Shown: one piece after another, positions 51,560-59,357 of the stretch | Numbering within the stretch: position 1 is the first letter of the stretch | How the letters are laid out: each line of letters starts with the position of its first letter | Position numbers and translations under genes: made by a program | Assembly (NCBI RefSeq): GCF_003044305.1 | Contig: NZ_PZOX01000005.1 | Location: forward strand, 515,493-579,492 | From: Vitiosangium sp. GDMCC 1.1324 | Lineage (GTDB): Bacteria > Myxococcota > Myxococcia > Myxococcales > Myxococcaceae | Length of the DNA stretch: 64,000 bases | Direction of reading: 5' to 3' | The notes under the pieces: generated by a model | What the model was told of the DNA's origin: nothing | What the model saw: only the letters and a program-made list of their open reading frames with translations | Databases searched by the model: none

Positions 51560-52864
51560 TCAGCTGCCCAACATGCGCAGGAAGGGAGATGCCGACAGAC
51601 GTCCGCGCATCTCCCGGGCCTGCACCAGCCCGGTATGCTGGAGCTGCGTGAAGGCCCGCGTCTGGAGCTGACACGCCCCCTGACTGCGGAGGGAGAGCTC
51701 CAACGCGAGCACGTGCCGTCGCCGCATGGGGCCCTGCTCCAGTTCCTCCAGCAGGCCGTCCAGACTGAACGCGCGCCCGCGCAGGTAGCGGGTGCCACGG
51801 GCGAAGTCCTTCCGAGATTCCGACCACCACGCGGCCACCGCCTCTCTTGCCGGTACCGGTAGCGCATCCTCCGGCCGAGGCTCCAGATCCCGCGAAAGGT
51901 CCTCCACGAGCGGGGGCAACGGCTCTTCTTCTTTCCCCTCCCTCGCGTAGGCGCCTTCCAGCTTCAGCCCGGTGATGGCACTGAAGGCTTCGCCCGCCAG
52001 GGCCGCCACGGGTCCCGGCCCCATGAGCTCCAGGCACGCCTCGGCGGCCTCCACTCGGCCACTGAAACCCAGCGCCCAGAGGGCGTTCTCGCGCATCGCC
52101 TCCGCCCCGGTGCACGCCGACAGCCGCACCAGGTCACGCTCGTCGCCACCGAGCGCCAGCATTACCAGCGACATCCGATCCACCTTCGTGCGCGAATCCA
52201 CCGCCTTGCGGCACGCCTCCCAGGCGGCATGCACTCCAGACATCATCCCCGCCGCGATGGCGGCTTCCCGCACGCCAGGACGCGAGTCCGCCAGCAATCG
52301 GGGCAGCTCGCGCGAGGCCACGTCCCGGGGCAAGGACGGCATACCGCGGAGCACGGCCACCACCACCCGGGCGTCCGGGTGCCCGAGCAACTCCACCTCG
52401 ACACCGCGAGGGAGCTGACCCCTGGAAGCGAGGACCTCGAGGGCCCAGGCCTGGAGCACGGGCTCCGGGGTCTTCAGCAATGACAGCAGGGCCTCGCCCA
52501 CCTCCGGCCGTCCGTTCAGCTCCAGCGCCCGCCCGAGGGGGGCGAGCGGCCCTTCGGGAGCGGCGGCCTGTACCCGCTTCACCAGTTCGGCCAGTTCCAG
52601 GCGTCCGGGCTCGGCCAACAGCGCCCAGAGCGCAGCGGAGATGCGCGGCGGGTCCTCCGAGTCCAACGCGGGCAACAGCAACTCCCTGGCCACGGCCTCG
52701 CCGCCCACCACCAGCCCGTCCAGGTGAGCCAGCAGCCGCTCCTCCAGCGAGGCCACGTCCTCCAGGGAATAGTCTGGCGCCACCAGGGCGCGATTCCACT
52801 GCACCCAGAGGAAGCTCGCCTCGTCCAGGTGCTCCTCGTAGATGTCCATCAGCGGGGATGCCAT
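51560..52864 (-). CDS. Alpha-helical repeat (HEAT-like) protein, TIGR02270-like family
   Basis: Repeated LL..PD.RV..A.L.G units. The family assignment is from memory of myxobacterial paralog families and is tentative. Confidence 0.6.
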   Translation of the reverse strand: MASPLMDIYEEHLDEASFLWVQWNRALVAPDYSLEDVASLEERLLAHLDGLVVGGEAVARELLLPALDSEDPPRISAALWALLAEPGRLELAELVKRVQAAAPEGPLAPLGRALELNGRPEVGEALLSLLKTPEPVLQAWALEVLASRGQLPRGVEVELLGHPDARVVVAVLRGMPSLPRDVASRELPRLLADSRPGVREAAIAAGMMSGVHAAWEACRKAVDSRTKVDRMSLVMLALGGDERDLVRLSACTGAEAMRENALWALGFSGRVEAAEACLELMGPGPVAALAGEAFSAITGLKLEGAYAREGKEEEPLPPLVEDLSRDLEPRPEDALPVPAREAVAAWWSESRKDFARGTRYLRGRAFSLDGLLEELEQGPMRRRHVLALELSLRSQGACQLQTRAFTQLQHTGLVQAREMRGRLSASPFLRMLGS

Positions 52865-52867
52865 GGA

Positions 52868-53391
52868 TCAGTTCACCTGCACCGAGCCACCCTTGATGCG
52901 GTGGGTGCCCGAGGCGTGGCTTTCGATCTGGGTCCCCTTGATGACAACCCGGCCATTGCGCCGCAGGGTGATGCTGGCCTGGCCGCATCGCAAAACAATC
53001 TCATCCTGGCCCTCGATGACGACTCGTTTGCCATCGACATGAGCCTCCACGGGCTGCTCCTCGATGGGCGCGGACTGCGCAAGGACTGCGTCCAGCAACG
53101 GCGTGGAACTGGGTGTCTGCTCCAGCCCCACCACCAATGGCATCAAGGGATCTCCATTTTCGAAGAGCAATACCGCCCGCTGACGGGTAGCAATGGCATC
53201 CCGCAGCGCCTCGGGCTCCAACGGAACCGTGCGCCGGGCAGCCAACGGACGGCCGGTGCGATTTCCCTCGAAGTCCACCAGCAGCATTCCCGCCTCATCC
53301 GTCCCAACGACCCACCCCAACTTGCTTCCCCAGATGGGCTCGCGCGTTTCATCGTCCGACCCTGTTCCCAACGAATGCATGGGTACCTTCA
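52868..53391 (-). CDS. Hypothetical protein with C-terminal beta-strand repeat (DUF6484-like, tentative); co-transcribed with the TIGR02270-like gene
   Basis: A GGAGAC RBS then MKVPMHS. The C-terminus VDGKRVVIEGQDEIVLRCGQASITLRRNGRVVIKGTQIESHASGTHRIKGGSVQVN resembles beta-helix/spike-like repeats. Confidence 0.5.
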
Positions 53392-53536
53392 TCCGGTGTC
53401 TCCTCTGATTGTGCTGGGTCCCAGCCCTGCCCCCCCATGGGTAGGAATAGTCTATCAGGTGGAACACCTTCTCCAGGAGTCCCTACCAGTCGCTATCAGA
53501 GCAACGAGAGTGCTGGATGGCAAACACCTACAACGT

Positions 53537-53565
53537 TTGACATATGCATCTGAATTTATCTAACG
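53537..53565 (+). promoter_or_regulatory. AT-rich promoter candidate (TTGACA -35-like hexamer, TATCTA/TCTAAC -10-like) for the DUF2169 operon
   Basis: The only strongly AT-rich stretch in the 53.4-53.6 kb divergent region. Hexamer spacing is suboptimal. Confidence 0.25.
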
Positions 53566-53595
53566 TCACTCCTCCGAAGTAGGGGGGATTAAACA

Positions 53596-54606
53596 ATGTG
53601 GGGGCTGAAGAATCGCACGGCCTACGCCGCAGAACGGAACTGGACGCGCGACAAGGACGGAGTCCATTGGTGGCTCGTCGCAGTCAAGGCAACGTTCGAC
53701 ATCGCTCCCGGGGGACGGCTCATGCTGGCGGACGAGCAACCGCCCCCGGTGCTGGCACCAGAGTATTTCGGCGAACCAGGCCGGTCGAGCTTGCGCTACG
53801 ACTCCGATCTCCTCGCGGCGAAGCCGGGCACGGACGTGCTGGTCGCCGCGCACGCGCACGCGCCGCATGGAAAACCTGCTCCCACGGTGCCGGTCTCGCT
53901 CCGTATCGAACGGCTCCACAAGGAGATACTCATACACGGGGAACGCCTCTACGACCGGGGGTTGCTCGGCGTGACGGTGACCCGGCCGCAGCCGTTCACC
54001 ACGCGCCCGATTCGATACGAATTCGCATTCGGTGGCAGCGACCTGTCCAACCCCGATCCCCAGAAGCAGCGTATCGATGAGCGGAACCCGATCGGACGCG
54101 GCTTCGCGCGGCGAACAACTGACGTCGTTGGGGAACTGGCCCACGCGATAGAGTATCCACGTGGCGCTCCAGCGGAGATGGGACCGGCGGGGTTCGGCCC
54201 GATCGATTCCTCCTGGATGCCGCGGCGCAAGCTCGCGGGGACATATGACGCACGGTGGGAACAATCGAAGAAGCCGCTGCTGCCTGATGACTTCGATCCC
54301 GCCTTCGCGCTGAGTGCCCCCACGGACCAGCGGACCGAGAAGCCCATCGTCGGCGAAGAGCGTGTCGAGCTCTTGAACATGACCCCCGACGGTGTCCTGC
54401 GCTTCGAGCTCCCGCGCATTTCGCTCGGCTTCACCACGCGCATCGGCACGCGGCGCGAGCAGCACGGCTCGCGACTGGTAACGGTGCTCGTGGAGCCCGA
54501 GGAGAGGCACCTCTCCCTGGTGTGGCAGAGCGTGCTGCGCGTTCCCGTCCCTGACGCGGACTATCTCGACGAAACGGAAATCGTCGAACAAAGGAGTACG
54601 ATGTGA
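53596..54606 (+). CDS. DUF2169-domain protein (T6SS effector adaptor family)
   Basis: MWGLKNRTAYAAE...WLVAVKATFDI is the characteristic DUF2169 N-terminus. A GGGGGG RBS precedes it. Confidence 0.8.
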   Translation: MWGLKNRTAYAAERNWTRDKDGVHWWLVAVKATFDIAPGGRLMLADEQPPPVLAPEYFGEPGRSSLRYDSDLLAAKPGTDVLVAAHAHAPHGKPAPTVPVSLRIERLHKEILIHGERLYDRGLLGVTVTRPQPFTTRPIRYEFAFGGSDLSNPDPQKQRIDERNPIGRGFARRTTDVVGELAHAIEYPRGAPAEMGPAGFGPIDSSWMPRRKLAGTYDARWEQSKKPLLPDDFDPAFALSAPTDQRTEKPIVGEERVELLNMTPDGVLRFELPRISLGFTTRIGTRREQHGSRLVTVLVEPEERHLSLVWQSVLRVPVPDADYLDETEIVEQRSTM

Positions 54607-55652
54607 ACGCCCAGGTCGAGGTGGTGGCCGTCGGCGCGCGAACCCCTGTCGGCCTCACCGCCGAGAGCAGTGCGGCGGCCGTGCGCGCTGGCATCACGCG
54701 GTACGCCGAGTATCCCTTCATCGACCCTCGCGGCGAACCGGTCGTGGTCGCCGCCGACCGGCTGCTCGAACCCAAGTTCGAGGGACGAGACCGTCTGGCG
54801 CCCATGGCCGAGAGTGTTCTCGAGGAGATTGAAGCCAAGATCGATCAGAAGATCCTCTACGGGGGCAGGCTCAGCGTGTTGCTCGCGCTTCCAGAAACCC
54901 GCCCGGGGTTCTCCGAGGACGACGCGGCCTGGGTGGCGAACGCCCTGGCTGCTCGGTTCCGAGCAAAAACGTCCAACGCGCACGTCGAGATCGCCGGGCG
55001 AGGGCACGCCGGAGCGATTCGGGCCGTCGAGCAGGTGGTGAGGGAGTGCTCCGAAAGCAGGGACAATCTGTTCCTGGTCGTTGGAGTCGACAGCTACCAC
55101 CACGCAGATACGTTCGCATGGTTGGAGCGCAGCCGCCGGTTCGCACAACCGGGGATTCGCAACGGGTTCACCCCGGGCGAGGGAGCTGGATGCCTCGCAC
55201 TGATGAGCGCGGGACTGCGCCGTCGCTTGCGCCTCCCCCAACTGGCCATCATGCGAGGGGCGAGCACCGCACAGGAGCGACTGCTGCGCGACAGTGACAC
55301 GGGCTCGTTCGGCGTCGGAATGACCCAGGCGCTCCAAGGCGCCATCGCTGGCCTCGACCGTCCCCGCGAGGGCGTCGACGCCGTGTACACGGATATCAAT
55401 GGTGAACGTTACCGCAGTGAGGAGTGGGGCTTCGTCGCGTTGCGTGCACCGTCGGTCTGGAAGACGCCCGGGTACAAGGCCCCGAGCGACTGCTGGGGTG
55501 ACGTGGGCGCTGCATTTGGGACGCTCGGGAGCATCCTGGCGGTCCAGGCGTTCGCGCGGAGCTACGCGCGAGGCCCGAGGGCTCTGGTGATGGCAGGCTC
55601 AGATGGCGGGCTGAGAGGGGCTATGCTCCTGCAAGCTCCCCAGGTGTCATGA
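54603..55652 (+). CDS. Ketosynthase (thiolase-fold)-like protein lacking the catalytic Cys (putative pseudoenzyme)
   Basis: VEVVAVGARTPVG / NGFTPGEGAGCLAL / GDVGAAFGTLGSILAVQAF parallel KAS I/II conserved blocks. The position equivalent to the active-site Cys reads IAGRGHAG. It overlaps the DUF2169 stop. Confidence 0.55.
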   Translation: MNAQVEVVAVGARTPVGLTAESSAAAVRAGITRYAEYPFIDPRGEPVVVAADRLLEPKFEGRDRLAPMAESVLEEIEAKIDQKILYGGRLSVLLALPETRPGFSEDDAAWVANALAARFRAKTSNAHVEIAGRGHAGAIRAVEQVVRECSESRDNLFLVVGVDSYHHADTFAWLERSRRFAQPGIRNGFTPGEGAGCLALMSAGLRRRLRLPQLAIMRGASTAQERLLRDSDTGSFGVGMTQALQGAIAGLDRPREGVDAVYTDINGERYRSEEWGFVALRAPSVWKTPGYKAPSDCWGDVGAAFGTLGSILAVQAFARSYARGPRALVMAGSDGGLRGAMLLQAPQVS

Positions 55653-55665
55653 GGAGGCAATCCGA

Positions 55666-56802
55666 ATGTCGAAAGTCTCTGTGAATACTCCGAAGACCCC
55701 GGTGACCGAAGGGACCAACGGGGTCGCCGCGGCGACGTTGCCCAACGTGTGCAAGATGCCGGGGCCGCCAGCTCCGTTTGTCCCGACCCCTCTGCCCAAC
55801 ATCGGCAAGAGCGGAACAGACCCGAAGAACTACTCCAAGAGCGTCACAATCGAAGGGAAGAAGGTGGCGATCAGGGGCGCCACCTTCGGTTCCATGGGTG
55901 ACGTGGCCAGCAAGGGGACCGGAGGCGGAATCGTCTCCTCCAACGTGGAAGGACCCACGAGCTTCGTGGGACCCGGGTCCATGGACGTGAAGATCGAGGG
56001 GAAGAACGTCCAACTGCTCGGCGACCCGATGCTCAACAACTGCGGGCCGAGCGGCAGCCCGGCGAACGCGGCGACAATGATGGGCGTGCTCCAAACGACC
56101 GGGTTCGTCACGGTCGTCAATGGGGAGGACAAATGCCCTTTGTGCAGGCAGCGACACGGTGAAGACGCTACTCTGAAAGAGGCTCCGTCGACGAAGGTCA
56201 ATGCCGGGCGACTAGCGCAGAGAGTCGCCAGGAAGGTGCGCTCTGGCGAATCTCCCCCTCTCGCGACAATGCTGGGGGTAGTCCAGTGCAAGTGTGGAAA
56301 AAAGAAAACCTATGCAGACCACTCGGGGGATACACTCCAATGTGTTTGCGACAGTATCGCGGAGCTAAAATGGGTGGGCCCCACGACTGCAACCAGTCCT
56401 GACATCAAAAAGAAAAAGGTCAAGAGTTTCCTTGAAGGTCGTTTCAGCCAACGAGGGGCAGACTTAGACAAGACGTGGCAGAAACTCACTCACCGCGCCC
56501 AAAAGAGCAAGCGCGGTGAGACCTCGTCTGCGGCCTACCCTCCGGGCTCTTGTGCTGGCCCAAGGGCACTCGTGCTCGCTCTAGAAGATAAAGCCTATCC
56601 GGCTGGCCTCACCGAACGATGGTTCCACAGCGGAAAGCAGCCGGTTGAGGCGAAGATCAGGTTCCGCGATGCGGAGAGCGGTGAAGAGGTCGAAGCTTAC
56701 TTCGACCATGGAAAGACCGTCCCGCCGTGTTTGACCTGCAATGTCATCATTCCTTCAATGCTCTGCCCCGAAGACAAGGAAATCGAATGTCAGCACCCTT
56801 AA
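55666..56802 (+). CDS. DUF4150 (PAAR-like) domain polymorphic toxin with Cys-rich C-terminal domain of unknown type
   Basis: N-terminus LPNVCKMPGPPAPFVPTPLPNIG ... IEGKKVAIRG ... IEGKNVQLLGDPMLNNCG is a typical DUF4150. The C-terminal approx. 220 aa carry CPLC, QCKCG, QCVC, SC, PPCLTC and C..C motifs, with GC content visibly lower than the flanks. Confidence 0.8.
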   Translation: MSKVSVNTPKTPVTEGTNGVAAATLPNVCKMPGPPAPFVPTPLPNIGKSGTDPKNYSKSVTIEGKKVAIRGATFGSMGDVASKGTGGGIVSSNVEGPTSFVGPGSMDVKIEGKNVQLLGDPMLNNCGPSGSPANAATMMGVLQTTGFVTVVNGEDKCPLCRQRHGEDATLKEAPSTKVNAGRLAQRVARKVRSGESPPLATMLGVVQCKCGKKKTYADHSGDTLQCVCDSIAELKWVGPTTATSPDIKKKKVKSFLEGRFSQRGADLDKTWQKLTHRAQKSKRGETSSAAYPPGSCAGPRALVLALEDKAYPAGLTERWFHSGKQPVEAKIRFRDAESGEEVEAYFDHGKTVPPCLTCNVIIPSMLCPEDKEIECQHP

Positions 56803-57542
56803 TGGAACTCGAGATGGAAGAACTGCTCCTGAGAATCGAGCCAGAACTCGCGGACCAGTGGCAGGGGGCGACTCCCGACATGATCGAGAAGATCGAGCGG
56901 CTTGCTGGTCACCCTTTGCCTCCATTCTATCGCTGGTTCCTAAGTCGCATGGGTAAGAGCATGGGGGCTCTGGCCTATCCGACTGTAGACTTCTCAGCGC
57001 AACGCGTGCTCGCCTGCTACGCCGAGAAGTTGGTCATGCCCGACCCCCGATTCTTGCTCATCGGATATGAATCCAATGAGATGATGCCTCTGCATGTCTT
57101 TTACGATTTCGATGCGCCGGCTCGAGAGGACGCCCTGGTGACGGAACGTTACGCCAAGGGAGGTGAACTTTACGACAGCTTCGAGACTTTGCGCGAAATG
57201 TTAGCATGGGGTGCGCTCTTGAAGTTCAGGGTCAACAAGATGCCGCAACAGTGTGAGGGCGTTCTCTCCAGCGATGATCCAGATCTCCTCTCACACCTCG
57301 ATCCGCTGATGAGTAGTCTTGGGTTCACCAAGCCGATTCCCACCGGGCCTCGCTGTGGCCTTTACGAGCGGCACGATTCGGTCCTGATATGCTCGCGTAC
57401 GCCGAGGGAAGAACTTATCGGCAATCAGGCCTTCACGCTCGGTGGACGCGACTCGGGAGTTCTCAGAAAGATTCTGGGCAGGATCACAACCGAGTCCTCG
57501 CTAGAGGTCGAAGTCGACGAGTGGACGCCAGCGCTCCGATGA
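56787..57542 (+). CDS. Immunity protein candidate (SUKH / SMI1-KNR4-like)
   Basis: It overlaps the toxin 3' end by 16 bp. DMIEKIERLAGHPLPPFYRWFLSRMG resembles the SMI1/KNR4 N-terminal signature, and GC content is lower. Confidence 0.65.
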   Translation: MSAPLMELEMEELLLRIEPELADQWQGATPDMIEKIERLAGHPLPPFYRWFLSRMGKSMGALAYPTVDFSAQRVLACYAEKLVMPDPRFLLIGYESNEMMPLHVFYDFDAPAREDALVTERYAKGGELYDSFETLREMLAWGALLKFRVNKMPQQCEGVLSSDDPDLLSHLDPLMSSLGFTKPIPTGPRCGLYERHDSVLICSRTPREELIGNQAFTLGGRDSGVLRKILGRITTESSLEVEVDEWTPALR

Positions 57543-57788
57543 AACGTCAGCTGTGCCCATGTTCCAGGGTTTATAAATCACCCGGCAGCAACGCTCGAAA
57601 ATCCACTTGATTTCGGGCATTTGGCCAATGCCAACGGTTGGTGACTTACGTTCTCTGGAACATTGCAAACCGCTGGCGCGGTGGAGAAAACCAGCGGCGG
57701 AAGGAAACGCCCAAGAATTCCAAGCGCTGACTCTGGGACCGAACGCAGCTCCGGGCATCGACCCTCCCCAAGAGGTGAAGAGGACCTG

Positions 57789-59357
57789 TCAGTCCAGCGG
57801 TACTGGCGTGTAGATGAACAGGTCCCCCAGTGTCGTCTGCCGGACCCCGTTGTCGTCCAGGCCGCCCACCACGAGCACCGAGCCGTCCTCCAGCACCGTG
57901 CACGTGTGCTGGTGACGCTCCCGCTCCAGCGGCTTCAACCCGAGCAGCGCCGTCGGGCCACCTTCCTTCCCGGGGACGAGCATCTCCACATGCGGGTCAC
58001 TCACGAGCCCACTCGTGCTGGACCCCAGCCCTCCCAGGGTCATCACCCGCCCATCCGGCAGCGCCACCGCGCACAGGTTGCTCCGGGCGAACACCTGGGG
58101 CCCCGCCGTCACCTGTGAGTCGCTCGCGGAAATGATCTCCGAGGAGGCCAGGAGCCTCACGTCCTCCACGCGGCCGGGCGAGTCGTAGCCCCCCAGGTAC
58201 GCCAGCCGCTCCGGCCCACCGAATGGCACGAGCGCCCCGTCGCGCCGGGGCTCCCGCAGCCGTGCGCCCTCGCCCACCGGAACGAAGCTGCCTCCCTCGT
58301 ACCCGAAGAACAGCACCTCCGGGCGCAACTCCGTCCCATCCCAGCCCCCCACCACGGCGATGCGCCGCCCCTCCTGCACCGCCATCACCCCCATGCCCAC
58401 CCGGGGCACCCGCGTGCTCACGGAGAACCCCTGGCCCGTCGTGCTGTCGTAGCCCTCGGCCTCCGACACCACCGCCCCCCCCTCCCCCACTCCCCCGACG
58501 AGCAGCACCCGCCCGCCCGAGTCCACCGCCGCCGCGTGGTGGCTGCGCGCCACCTTCAACTCCACCGCCGTGGACGTCCCCTGGGCCACGTCCAGCACCC
58601 GGGCATTCCGCATGGGCAACGTCCCCTCCGCCGACACCGCCTCGCCTCCCGCCACCAGCACCTTGCCTCCCGGCAGCCGCGTCGCGGTGTGGAATGCCCT
58701 CGGCGAGCCCAACCCCAGCCCCTGCTCCAGCGCGCCCGTCACCGGATCGAAGAGCTCCGTCGAGGACAGCGTCGTGCTGTCCCCGTTCAGGTCGAGCTGG
58801 ATGCCTCCGGCCAGCAGCACCCGCCCGTCCTCCAGCAGCGTCGCGGTGTGCCCCGCCCGGGGCTCCGCGAGCGTCACGCACGCATCATTCGCCCCGCCCG
58901 GCCTCACATACTCGTCCACACGGCGCACCGCGACGCGCACCGTCGGGCGGCCCTCGTCCGCCGACTCCGGCACGTCGAAGGGATGCGAGCGCCCCACGGA
59001 CACCACGCGGCCTCCCGCTCCAGGCAGGTCCGTGTAGCCGCGCACCTCCAGCACCCGACCCTTCCCCGAGGGGACCTCCGGCGGCTCCACCCGGCCCGGC
59101 TCCACCAGGACGTAGCGCTCCACGGGCTCCATCCCCACGCCGGTGACTCGGAAGCGCAGGTAACGCACCCCCTCCAGGGCCGGCGTCCCCGAGCACGCCT
59201 CCGTGCGGAGTTCCACCCCGTAGAGCCCCTCCCTCGGCCCACAGCCAGCGAGGAGCCCCATCGCCACCACCCAGGCCTTCCAGCCTGGCGACCGGGCCCT
59301 GCCCTGTCCGATGCCCCACCCGGCGGGCAAGGTCCACCCGTTGATACTCCGCCCCAT
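57789..59357 (-). CDS. Kelch-repeat lipoprotein
   Basis: ...AMGLLAGC lipobox, then repeated GRVLLAGG / GKVLVAGG / GRVLLVGG beta-propeller blades. The listed 862-aa ORF upstream extension was rejected. Confidence 0.7.
   Translation of the reverse strand: MGRSINGWTLPAGWGIGQGRARSPGWKAWVVAMGLLAGCGPREGLYGVELRTEACSGTPALEGVRYLRFRVTGVGMEPVERYVLVEPGRVEPPEVPSGKGRVLEVRGYTDLPGAGGRVVSVGRSHPFDVPESADEGRPTVRVAVRRVDEYVRPGGANDACVTLAEPRAGHTATLLEDGRVLLAGGIQLDLNGDSTTLSSTELFDPVTGALEQGLGLGSPRAFHTATRLPGGKVLVAGGEAVSAEGTLPMRNARVLDVAQGTSTAVELKVARSHHAAAVDSGGRVLLVGGVGEGGAVVSEAEGYDSTTGQGFSVSTRVPRVGMGVMAVQEGRRIAVVGGWDGTELRPEVLFFGYEGGSFVPVGEGARLREPRRDGALVPFGGPERLAYLGGYDSPGRVEDVRLLASSEIISASDSQVTAGPQVFARSNLCAVALPDGRVMTLGGLGSSTSGLVSDPHVEMLVPGKEGGPTALLGLKPLERERHQHTCTVLEDGSVLVVGGLDDNGVRQTTLGDLFIYTPVPLD

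Follow-up and report, generated by a model that had tools for sequence, protein, structure and literature searches.

A PAAR-linked toxin tip of myxobacteria with a predicted deaminase-like zinc fold and without the canonical catalytic glutamate

What is the nature of the cysteine-rich domain with which the protein encoded at 55666..56802 (+ strand) ends, in the 64,000-nucleotide stretch of Vitiosangium sp. GDMCC 1.1324 analysed here (contig NZ_PZOX01000005.1, positions 515,493 to 579,492; hereafter the window)? An initial annotation made from the letters of the DNA had placed an unclassified toxin domain with depressed GC content at 56150-56802 and proposed a zinc-ribbon or HNH-like nuclease. 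Here, the domain is interpreted as the tip of a type VI secretion system (T6SS) effector, with a deaminase-like zinc fold that lacks the canonical glutamate. The probability that we assign to this overall explanation is roughly 0.55.

Architecture, family and immunity gene of the effector

The open reading frame (ORF) at 55666..56802 (+) encodes 378 aa and consists of two parts. The first is a Tox-PAAR-like (DUF4150) delivery domain at 55666..56094 (+), corresponding to aa 1-143, which matches Pfam PF13665 with an E value of 2.4e-17 and whose last residues form the junction peptide ATMMGVLQ. This match agrees with the annotated arrangement of a C-terminal toxin tip on a DUF4150/Tox-PAAR-like module. 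The second part, at 56095..56802 (+), is the C-terminal toxin domain of 235 aa (aa 144-378), which belongs to an uncurated family and has a predicted deaminase-like zinc fold. No match to this domain was obtained in Pfam, NCBIfam or PADLOC, and Pfam scans of 119 family members likewise returned none for the C-terminal domain. Searching the PDB by sequence, with the single sequence and with three profiles, gave chance matches only, to EF-P and to the RAD50 zinc hook. A profile search of a database of 5.8 billion proteins at E ≤ 10 retrieved family members only.

The family is large. At E ≤ 1e-3, an exhaustive profile search found at least 209 representative clusters at 50% identity, most of them on PAAR-like N-domains. 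In reference genomes, nearly all members come from Myxococcota, namely from Myxococcus, Archangium, Corallococcus, Cystobacter, Pyxidicoccus, Nannocystis and Enhygromyxa, and a single genome frequently holds more than one paralogue; the best genome match to the window protein is 76% identical. Outside this phylum, a few metagenome-assembled genomes labelled as other phyla and one stand-alone copy from Caballeronia were found. The latter, a 227-aa homologue of Caballeronia catudaia (locus L041, 3995-4678), has neither a PAAR domain nor an adjoining SUKH gene, and its neighbours are urea carboxylase and allophanate hydrolase genes. It retains the CPxC-His, SG, GxCAA, SE and CxxC...C motifs and is without the cysteines equivalent to C208 and C375, and it may represent a branch of the family that is non-T6SS or non-toxin. 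The tip family is uncurated and apparently undescribed, while this type of module is ordinary for myxobacteria.

The initial annotation regarded the domain as a shuffled polymorphic-toxin tip, and comparison of homologues bears this out. Their N-domains are 84-99% identical, whereas their tips share only 34-89%. Moreover, one N-domain that is 76% identical to the window copy bears an Ntox16 tip instead, and the similarity between the two proteins ends exactly at aa 143 (...ATMMGV).

Immediately downstream lies the predicted cognate immunity gene at 56802..57542 (+), probably of the SUKH/SMI1-KNR4 superfamily, whose ATG overlaps the toxin stop codon (TAATG); an alternative in-frame ATG is present at 56787. 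The encoded protein scores below the cutoffs against SUKH profiles (E 0.005), with 18 bits for SMI1_KNR4 (cutoff 25.4) and 17.1 for SUKH_5 (cutoff 27). It is 29% identical (E 2e-13) to the equivalent neighbour in locus L003, which carries a PF09346 (SMI1_KNR4) annotation. A homologue of the immunity gene was located directly 3' of the toxin gene in 40 of the 41 loci fetched. The identity of the immunity protein falls in step with that of the toxin, from 80% with 70% for the toxin in locus L002, to 65% with about 47% in L001, and finally to 29% with 27% in L003. It can also be observed that a second, tandem immunity paralogue lies 3' of the cognate one in L002 (8044-8754), as well as in L004, L005, L031 and L038. 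The second copy of L002 is 83% identical to the cognate immunity protein of a different toxin variant located at the same chromosomal site in L001. These second paralogues are orphan immunity genes of the kind left by tip displacement. Taken from sequence and gene context, it is very probable that the locus is a T6SS polymorphic toxin-immunity cassette, with toxicity and delivery as predicted properties.

Conserved residues, predicted fold and the missing glutamate

The ORF contains cysteines at positions 157, 160, 208, 210, 226, 228, 296, 355, 358, 367 and 375, and histidines at 164, 219, 276, 321, 348 and 377. Every motif quoted in the initial annotation (CPLC, QCKCGKKK, ADH, QCVC, SC, PPCLTC and C-x7-C-x-H) was found, with two corrections: CPLC and QCKC are separated by 46 residues rather than 37, and the QCVC cysteines C226 and C228 are not shared by homologues. 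Conservation across the family was computed over 66 diverse sequences. Nine positions are conserved in 94-100% of these, namely C157, C160, M202, S220, C296, E317, C355, C358 and C367, followed by A297 (92%), C375 (88%), C208 (82%) and E172 (79%). Within the close family, eleven Cys and His residues are invariant or nearly so, which makes the zinc binding suggested by the initial annotation plausible at the level of sequence.

The conserved residues are distributed in a series of motifs along the domain. Near its start, a C157-P-L-C160-x3-H164 knuckle (56134..56157, +) is a putative accessory zinc site, in which C157 and C160 are each present in 97% of members; a His stands 4-10 aa after the first Cys in 66/66. 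The first two core strands, M202-LGVVQ-C208-K-C210 ... YADH-S220, span 56269..56325 (+), with M202 in 98%, C208 in 82% and S220 in 94%. The segment G294-S-C296-A-G298-P-R300 (56545..56565, +), assigned from the model and from the hhalign alignment, marks the start of helix 2; it would supply the first putative zinc ligand, C296 (97%), and it has a Gly at the catalytic-Glu position. In strand 3, T316-E317 (56611..56616, +) contains the candidate substitute catalytic residue: E317 is kept in 65/66 sequences with Thr or Ser at position 316 in 57/66, and is retained in stand-alone homologues in the form MSEVM. The start of helix 3 is formed by P353-P-C355-L-T-C358 (56722..56739, +), where C355 and C358 are conserved in 100%; its pattern V-P-[PS]-C355-x-x-C358 is the PCxxC feature of the deaminase superfamily. 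Finally, the C-terminal tail C367-x7-C375-x-H377 (56764..56796, +) provides further putative metal ligands (C367 98%, C375 88%). Across the family, C208/C210 and C375 are kept or lost together, with 56 + 6 concordant against 4 discordant cases (Fisher p 6e-6, a value inflated by relatedness).

The richness in Cys, together with some His, is what favours the HNH-like (beta-beta-alpha-metal) or zinc-ribbon nuclease of the initial annotation, and the CPLC knuckle gives stray, sub-threshold matches to zinc-ribbon families. No HNH or other nuclease family was detected in Pfam for 25 diverse members even with E up to 10, and the predicted fold is an alpha/beta sandwich. A nuclease of this type is the least probable of the explanations considered.

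The AlphaFold model, obtained with a 25-sequence alignment, has a predicted local distance difference test score (pLDDT) of 84.6 and a predicted template modelling score (pTM) of 0.86; 139 is added to model numbering to obtain ORF numbering. In model numbering, the N-terminal part is predicted to contain a helix at 35-53 and strands at 61-69 and 76-80, followed by a helical insert spanning 86-143. The middle part comprises a helix at 158-168 placed directly after C296 and strands at 173-182, which bears E317, at 192-195 and at 202-205. A helix at 219-226 (aa 358-365) then starts at the PCxxC motif and is followed by a Cys-containing tail of 13 residues. A papain-like Cys-His arrangement, in which a Cys at the start of a helix is followed by strands, was also considered and was dropped, H321 not being conserved across the family.

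When the family profile was aligned by hhalign with the cytidine deaminase of B. subtilis, the sequence of which was checked against 1jtk, a P value of 8.6e-4 at a probability of 24% was obtained. The alignment pairs C296 with C53, G298 with E55, and C355/C358 with C86/C89, so that all three zinc ligands are in register. Its score of 27.4 compares with a maximum of 17.7 among 60 column shuffles. Furthermore, three deaminases recur among the top structural matches for two independent models, giving the longest alignments at low root-mean-square deviation. The same features might arise by convergence, as a Cys at the start of one helix and a CxxC at the start of the next could occur in a new zinc-stabilised fold unrelated to deaminases, with the domain acting as a nuclease or as a binder that blocks its target. 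Such an origin appears rather improbable in view of the register of the three ligands, which beats 60/60 shuffles, of the recurrence of deaminases for both models, and of a pattern of inserts that fits a described deaminase clade.

Several results weigh against a deaminase-like fold. The hhalign probability is only 24%, and blasticidin-S deaminase and TadA align at the PCxxC motif only. Foldseek found no match in the PDB at E ≤ 0.001. No curated Pfam deaminase profile matched 25 diverse members with E up to 10, or 94 others at E ≤ 1 or E ≤ 0.01. The elements that follow helix 3, strands 4-5, are missing in the model. Above all, the catalytic-Glu position of the [HC]xE motif, computed over 128 sequences, is Ala in 97 cases and Gly in 29, with a single Ile, a single Thr and no Glu. 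The initial annotation had sensed that the order of motifs did not cleanly match HNH or a deaminase, and the mismatch is real: no member examined has the Glu of [HC]xE. Because this defining catalytic residue is absent, classification of the domain as a deaminase is not warranted. On balance, a deaminase-like fold is judged likely rather than proven, and we infer homology with the deaminases. It is unusual for a deaminase-like frame to lack the catalytic Glu so consistently.

Two further explanations were considered. Chemistries other than deamination are found on the deaminase-like fold in JAB, AICAR transformylase and FdhD. The scaffold here could similarly serve another reaction, of a nucleotide, NAD, ADP-ribose or peptidase type, with the zinc pocket kept or with C296 as nucleophile. 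The absence of the canonical Glu from every member, the missing strands 4-5 and the invariance of E317, S220 and the His after CPxC are in keeping with this, and PMC3239186 describes several chemistries hosted by the fold. No match in sequence or fold was found to JAB, FdhD or other non-deaminase branches, the closest matches being true Cys3 deaminases, and a different chemistry is judged a minority prospect, somewhat ahead of the convergent fold. The domain might alternatively be a catalytically dead and non-toxic deaminase-like module that extends the PAAR spike as a binder or adaptor, comparable to inactive deaminase domains such as Tad3. This is very unlikely. Of 41 loci, 40 have a dedicated SUKH-type immunity gene that diverges together with the tip, and some loci hold orphan immunity genes as well. 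The tip itself changes rapidly beside a conserved N-domain, sits where the recognised toxin Ntox16 does, and shows strong conservation at the putative pocket.

Cassette limits, neighbouring genes and a proposed mechanism

The region 56150-56802 has a GC content of 56.0% in comparison with 68.6% for the window, and falls in the lowest 0.9% of 653-bp windows. The initial annotation had expected a decrease of more than 10 points relative to the flanks; the GC-window check gave a drop of 12.6 points relative to the window. GC content at third codon positions is 0.63 in this region, as against 0.84 for the PAAR portion of the ORF. For Lys, AAA is used in 9/23 codons of the region, while each of seven other genes or gene parts counted contains 0-1 AAA codons. 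Both of the runs of A quoted in the initial annotation exist, at 56298 and 56407, and the toxin domain holds 3 of only seven runs of at least five A in the window. On the - strand, ORFs of 59-64 aa at 56198-56489 run antisense to the toxin domain; they are unsupported and were taken as spurious.

The low-GC tract extends beyond the region first noted and takes in the downstream gene. The resulting cassette of approximately 56% GC, delimited by GC scan to about 56100..57650 and not assigned to a strand, thus comprises the toxin tip and the immunity gene, with its 5' edge at the aa-143 junction: the GC drop begins at about nt 56095, coinciding with the break in similarity. Depression of GC is repeated in 32 related loci, where the mean shortfall relative to the upstream DNA is 8 points for the tip and 7 points for the 750 bp that follow it. 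As the depression recurs in this manner, low GC is a property of the cassette family and not an accident of this window.

Two repeats are located near the limits of the cassette. A 23-nt direct repeat, 83% identical between copies, is found at 56071-56093 and 56263-56285. The first copy encodes the junction ATMMGVLQ (aa 136-143), where similarity to the Ntox16-bearing proteins stops, and the second encodes ATMLGVVQ (aa 200-207) in the first core strand, of which M202 and G204 are conserved in the family. The repeat could be due to chance or could be a trace of the joining of the tip to the PAAR module. At the other end, an imperfect 24-nt inverted repeat (57559-57582 / 57640-57663; 75% complementary, arms 57 nt apart) sits just 3' of the immunity stop codon, where GC regains the genome level, and could mark the end of the transcript or the cassette boundary. 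Scanning of 53000-58500 revealed neither an Rfam family nor a sigma-70-like promoter, and none of the terminators was convincing.

Upstream of the effector, two genes on the same strand are associated with delivery. A DUF2169 T6SS adaptor/chaperone gene at 53596..54606 (+; Pfam DUF2169 E 3.6e-86) overlaps the next gene by 4 nt, a PRK06147 ketosynthase-like putative T6SS adaptor at 54603..55652 (+; NCBIfam PRK06147 E 1e-59, below the equivalog cutoff), and these two genes and that of the effector overlap or are closely spaced. DUF2169 is a known class of T6SS adaptor, and PRK06147 is a proposed adaptor usually located 5' of PAAR effectors (PMC7714669). The PRK06147 gene is syntenic in L001-L003. 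A 722-aa protein of Archangium violaceum (P0090) combines a PRK06147 adaptor, a PAAR-like domain and the toxin tip in one polypeptide; because the three are fused there, a direct functional link between the PRK06147 adaptor and these effectors is supported.

On the opposite strand, and divergent from the effector operon, lie two adjoining genes. The nearer encodes a DUF6484 protein (52868..53467, -; Pfam DUF6484 E 3.1e-20) with a weak resemblance, below the cutoff, to the VgrG C-terminal DUF2345 (E 0.0012). The other encodes a TIGR02270-family HEAT-repeat protein, a T6SS-effector-associated accessory (51560..52864, -), which matches NCBIfam TIGR02270 with E 2.3e-101, above the curated cutoff, and Pfam HEAT_2. 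The HEAT gene is placed directly 5' of DUF2169 in L001 and L002, on the same strand as it, in contrast to the divergent orientation in the window, and just 3' of the immunity gene in L003. Beyond these, the neighbours examined consist largely of housekeeping genes, those for mevalonate-pathway enzymes among them, together with one for a Kelch-repeat protein. No core T6SS genes were found within the 64-kb window. PAAR toxin loci of M. xanthus apart from the T6SS cluster have been reported (PMC12077131), and by analogy with these the present locus is best described as an orphan effector island.

The favoured explanation can be set out as a sequence of predicted stages. During delivery, the PAAR-like N-domain would cap the VgrG spike, aided by the DUF2169, PRK06147 and TIGR02270 accessory proteins, and the spike would carry the toxin tip into a neighbouring cell. 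The producer would be protected by the translationally coupled SUKH-type immunity protein (56802-57542), and the tip and immunity gene would recombine together, as a low-GC cassette of 1.5 kb, at the ATMMGV(L/V)Q junction. For the core of the tip, the most likely structure is a divergent cytidine-deaminase-like fold that is cut short at its C-terminus, in which helical segments are inserted after strand 2 and a hairpin ahead of PCxxC, as in the YwqJ clade. In the pocket, C296, C355 and C358 would hold zinc with one coordination position left open. The other eight conserved Cys and His residues would account for one or two structural metal sites, with C157, C160, H164 and C367 as candidates for one and C208, C210, C375 and H377 for the other; this 4 + 4 + 3 division of the eleven residues is suggested by the sequence. 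Since Ala or Gly takes the place of the helix-2 Glu across the family, the textbook deaminase mechanism is unavailable. A nucleobase or nucleotide in the target cytoplasm might instead be attacked at the zinc pocket, with the invariant E317, or less likely E172, serving as a relocated general acid/base. S220 may help to bind the substrate, the end of strand 2 being where deaminases bind ribose. The architecture, the family, the linkage to an immunity gene, the GC anomaly, the conserved motifs and the lack of the Glu are observed directly. We infer the substrate, the zinc sites and the catalytic function of E317, and only tentatively propose that the tip is active in modifying bases or nucleotides, its catalytic residue having been relocated.

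Significance and comparison with known systems

Deaminase-fold polymorphic toxins have led to base editors of the DddA type and explain the origin of the eukaryotic editing deaminases. The present family, with at least 209 clusters, a strictly linked immunity gene and a conserved, putative deaminase-like zinc pocket, yet never possesses the glutamate considered indispensable. If it is active, either the catalytic residue has been relocated or a new chemistry operates on the deaminase scaffold. It is possible, though doubtful, that this is an active toxin family with new catalysis on that scaffold, either with Cys3 zinc and a proton shuttle moved from helix 2 to strand 3 (E317) or through a modification of nucleobases or nucleotides other than deamination. 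Were this true, the family would be an enzyme class of its own within the deaminase fold and could supply new base-modifying tools. Should it prove not to be a deaminase at all, an uncurated toxin domain with a dedicated immunity family remains. Either way, the arsenal of myxobacterial kin discrimination is enlarged, and the domain would merit a model in Pfam or NCBIfam.

With respect to its operon, the locus resembles that of Agrobacterium Tde2, where DUF2169 adaptor gene(s) likewise accompany a PAAR-like N-domain joined to a C-terminal toxin, with the immunity gene downstream. The toxin domain itself is unrelated, the Tde proteins being Ntox15 DNases (PMC4096383). SsdA (PDB 9c63) and DddA, T6SS deaminase toxins, carry the HxE motif and are demonstrated DNA cytosine deaminases (PMC7901873), whereas the family described here is without that Glu; an hhalign comparison with an approximate DddA sequence gave P 0.3 and showed no sequence similarity. 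The tetrameric Cys3-zinc cytidine deaminases and blasticidin-S deaminase (PDB 1jtk, 3b8f, 3oj6) are housekeeping or resistance enzymes of approximately 130 aa that possess the catalytic Glu and strands 4-5, none of which applies here. Relative to them, the domain adds a helical insert of approximately 60 aa, a hairpin insert and an N-terminal putative zinc knuckle.

The closest parallel is offered by the YwqJ-like clade (Iyer, Zhang, Rogozin and Aravind 2011, PMC3239186), which has been described as having one insert behind strand 2 and another separating strand 3 from CxxC, as ending after helix 3 and as being paired with SUKH immunity. Like the members of that clade, the domain is a C-terminal tip on a secretion module with SUKH-type immunity, has G-x-[CH] at the start of helix 2, contains an insert between strand 3 and CxxC, and is truncated after helix 3, with 13 residues following. 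It differs in having Ala or Gly for the Glu of Gx[CH]xE, in not matching the Pfam YwqJ-deaminase profile, and in showing no conserved His in the insert after strand 2. Unlike the YwqJ-like proteins, moreover, the present family has extra CPxC-His and tail Cys clusters, is predicted to rely on a DUF4150 PAAR-like domain for delivery, and occurs almost exclusively in Myxococcota.

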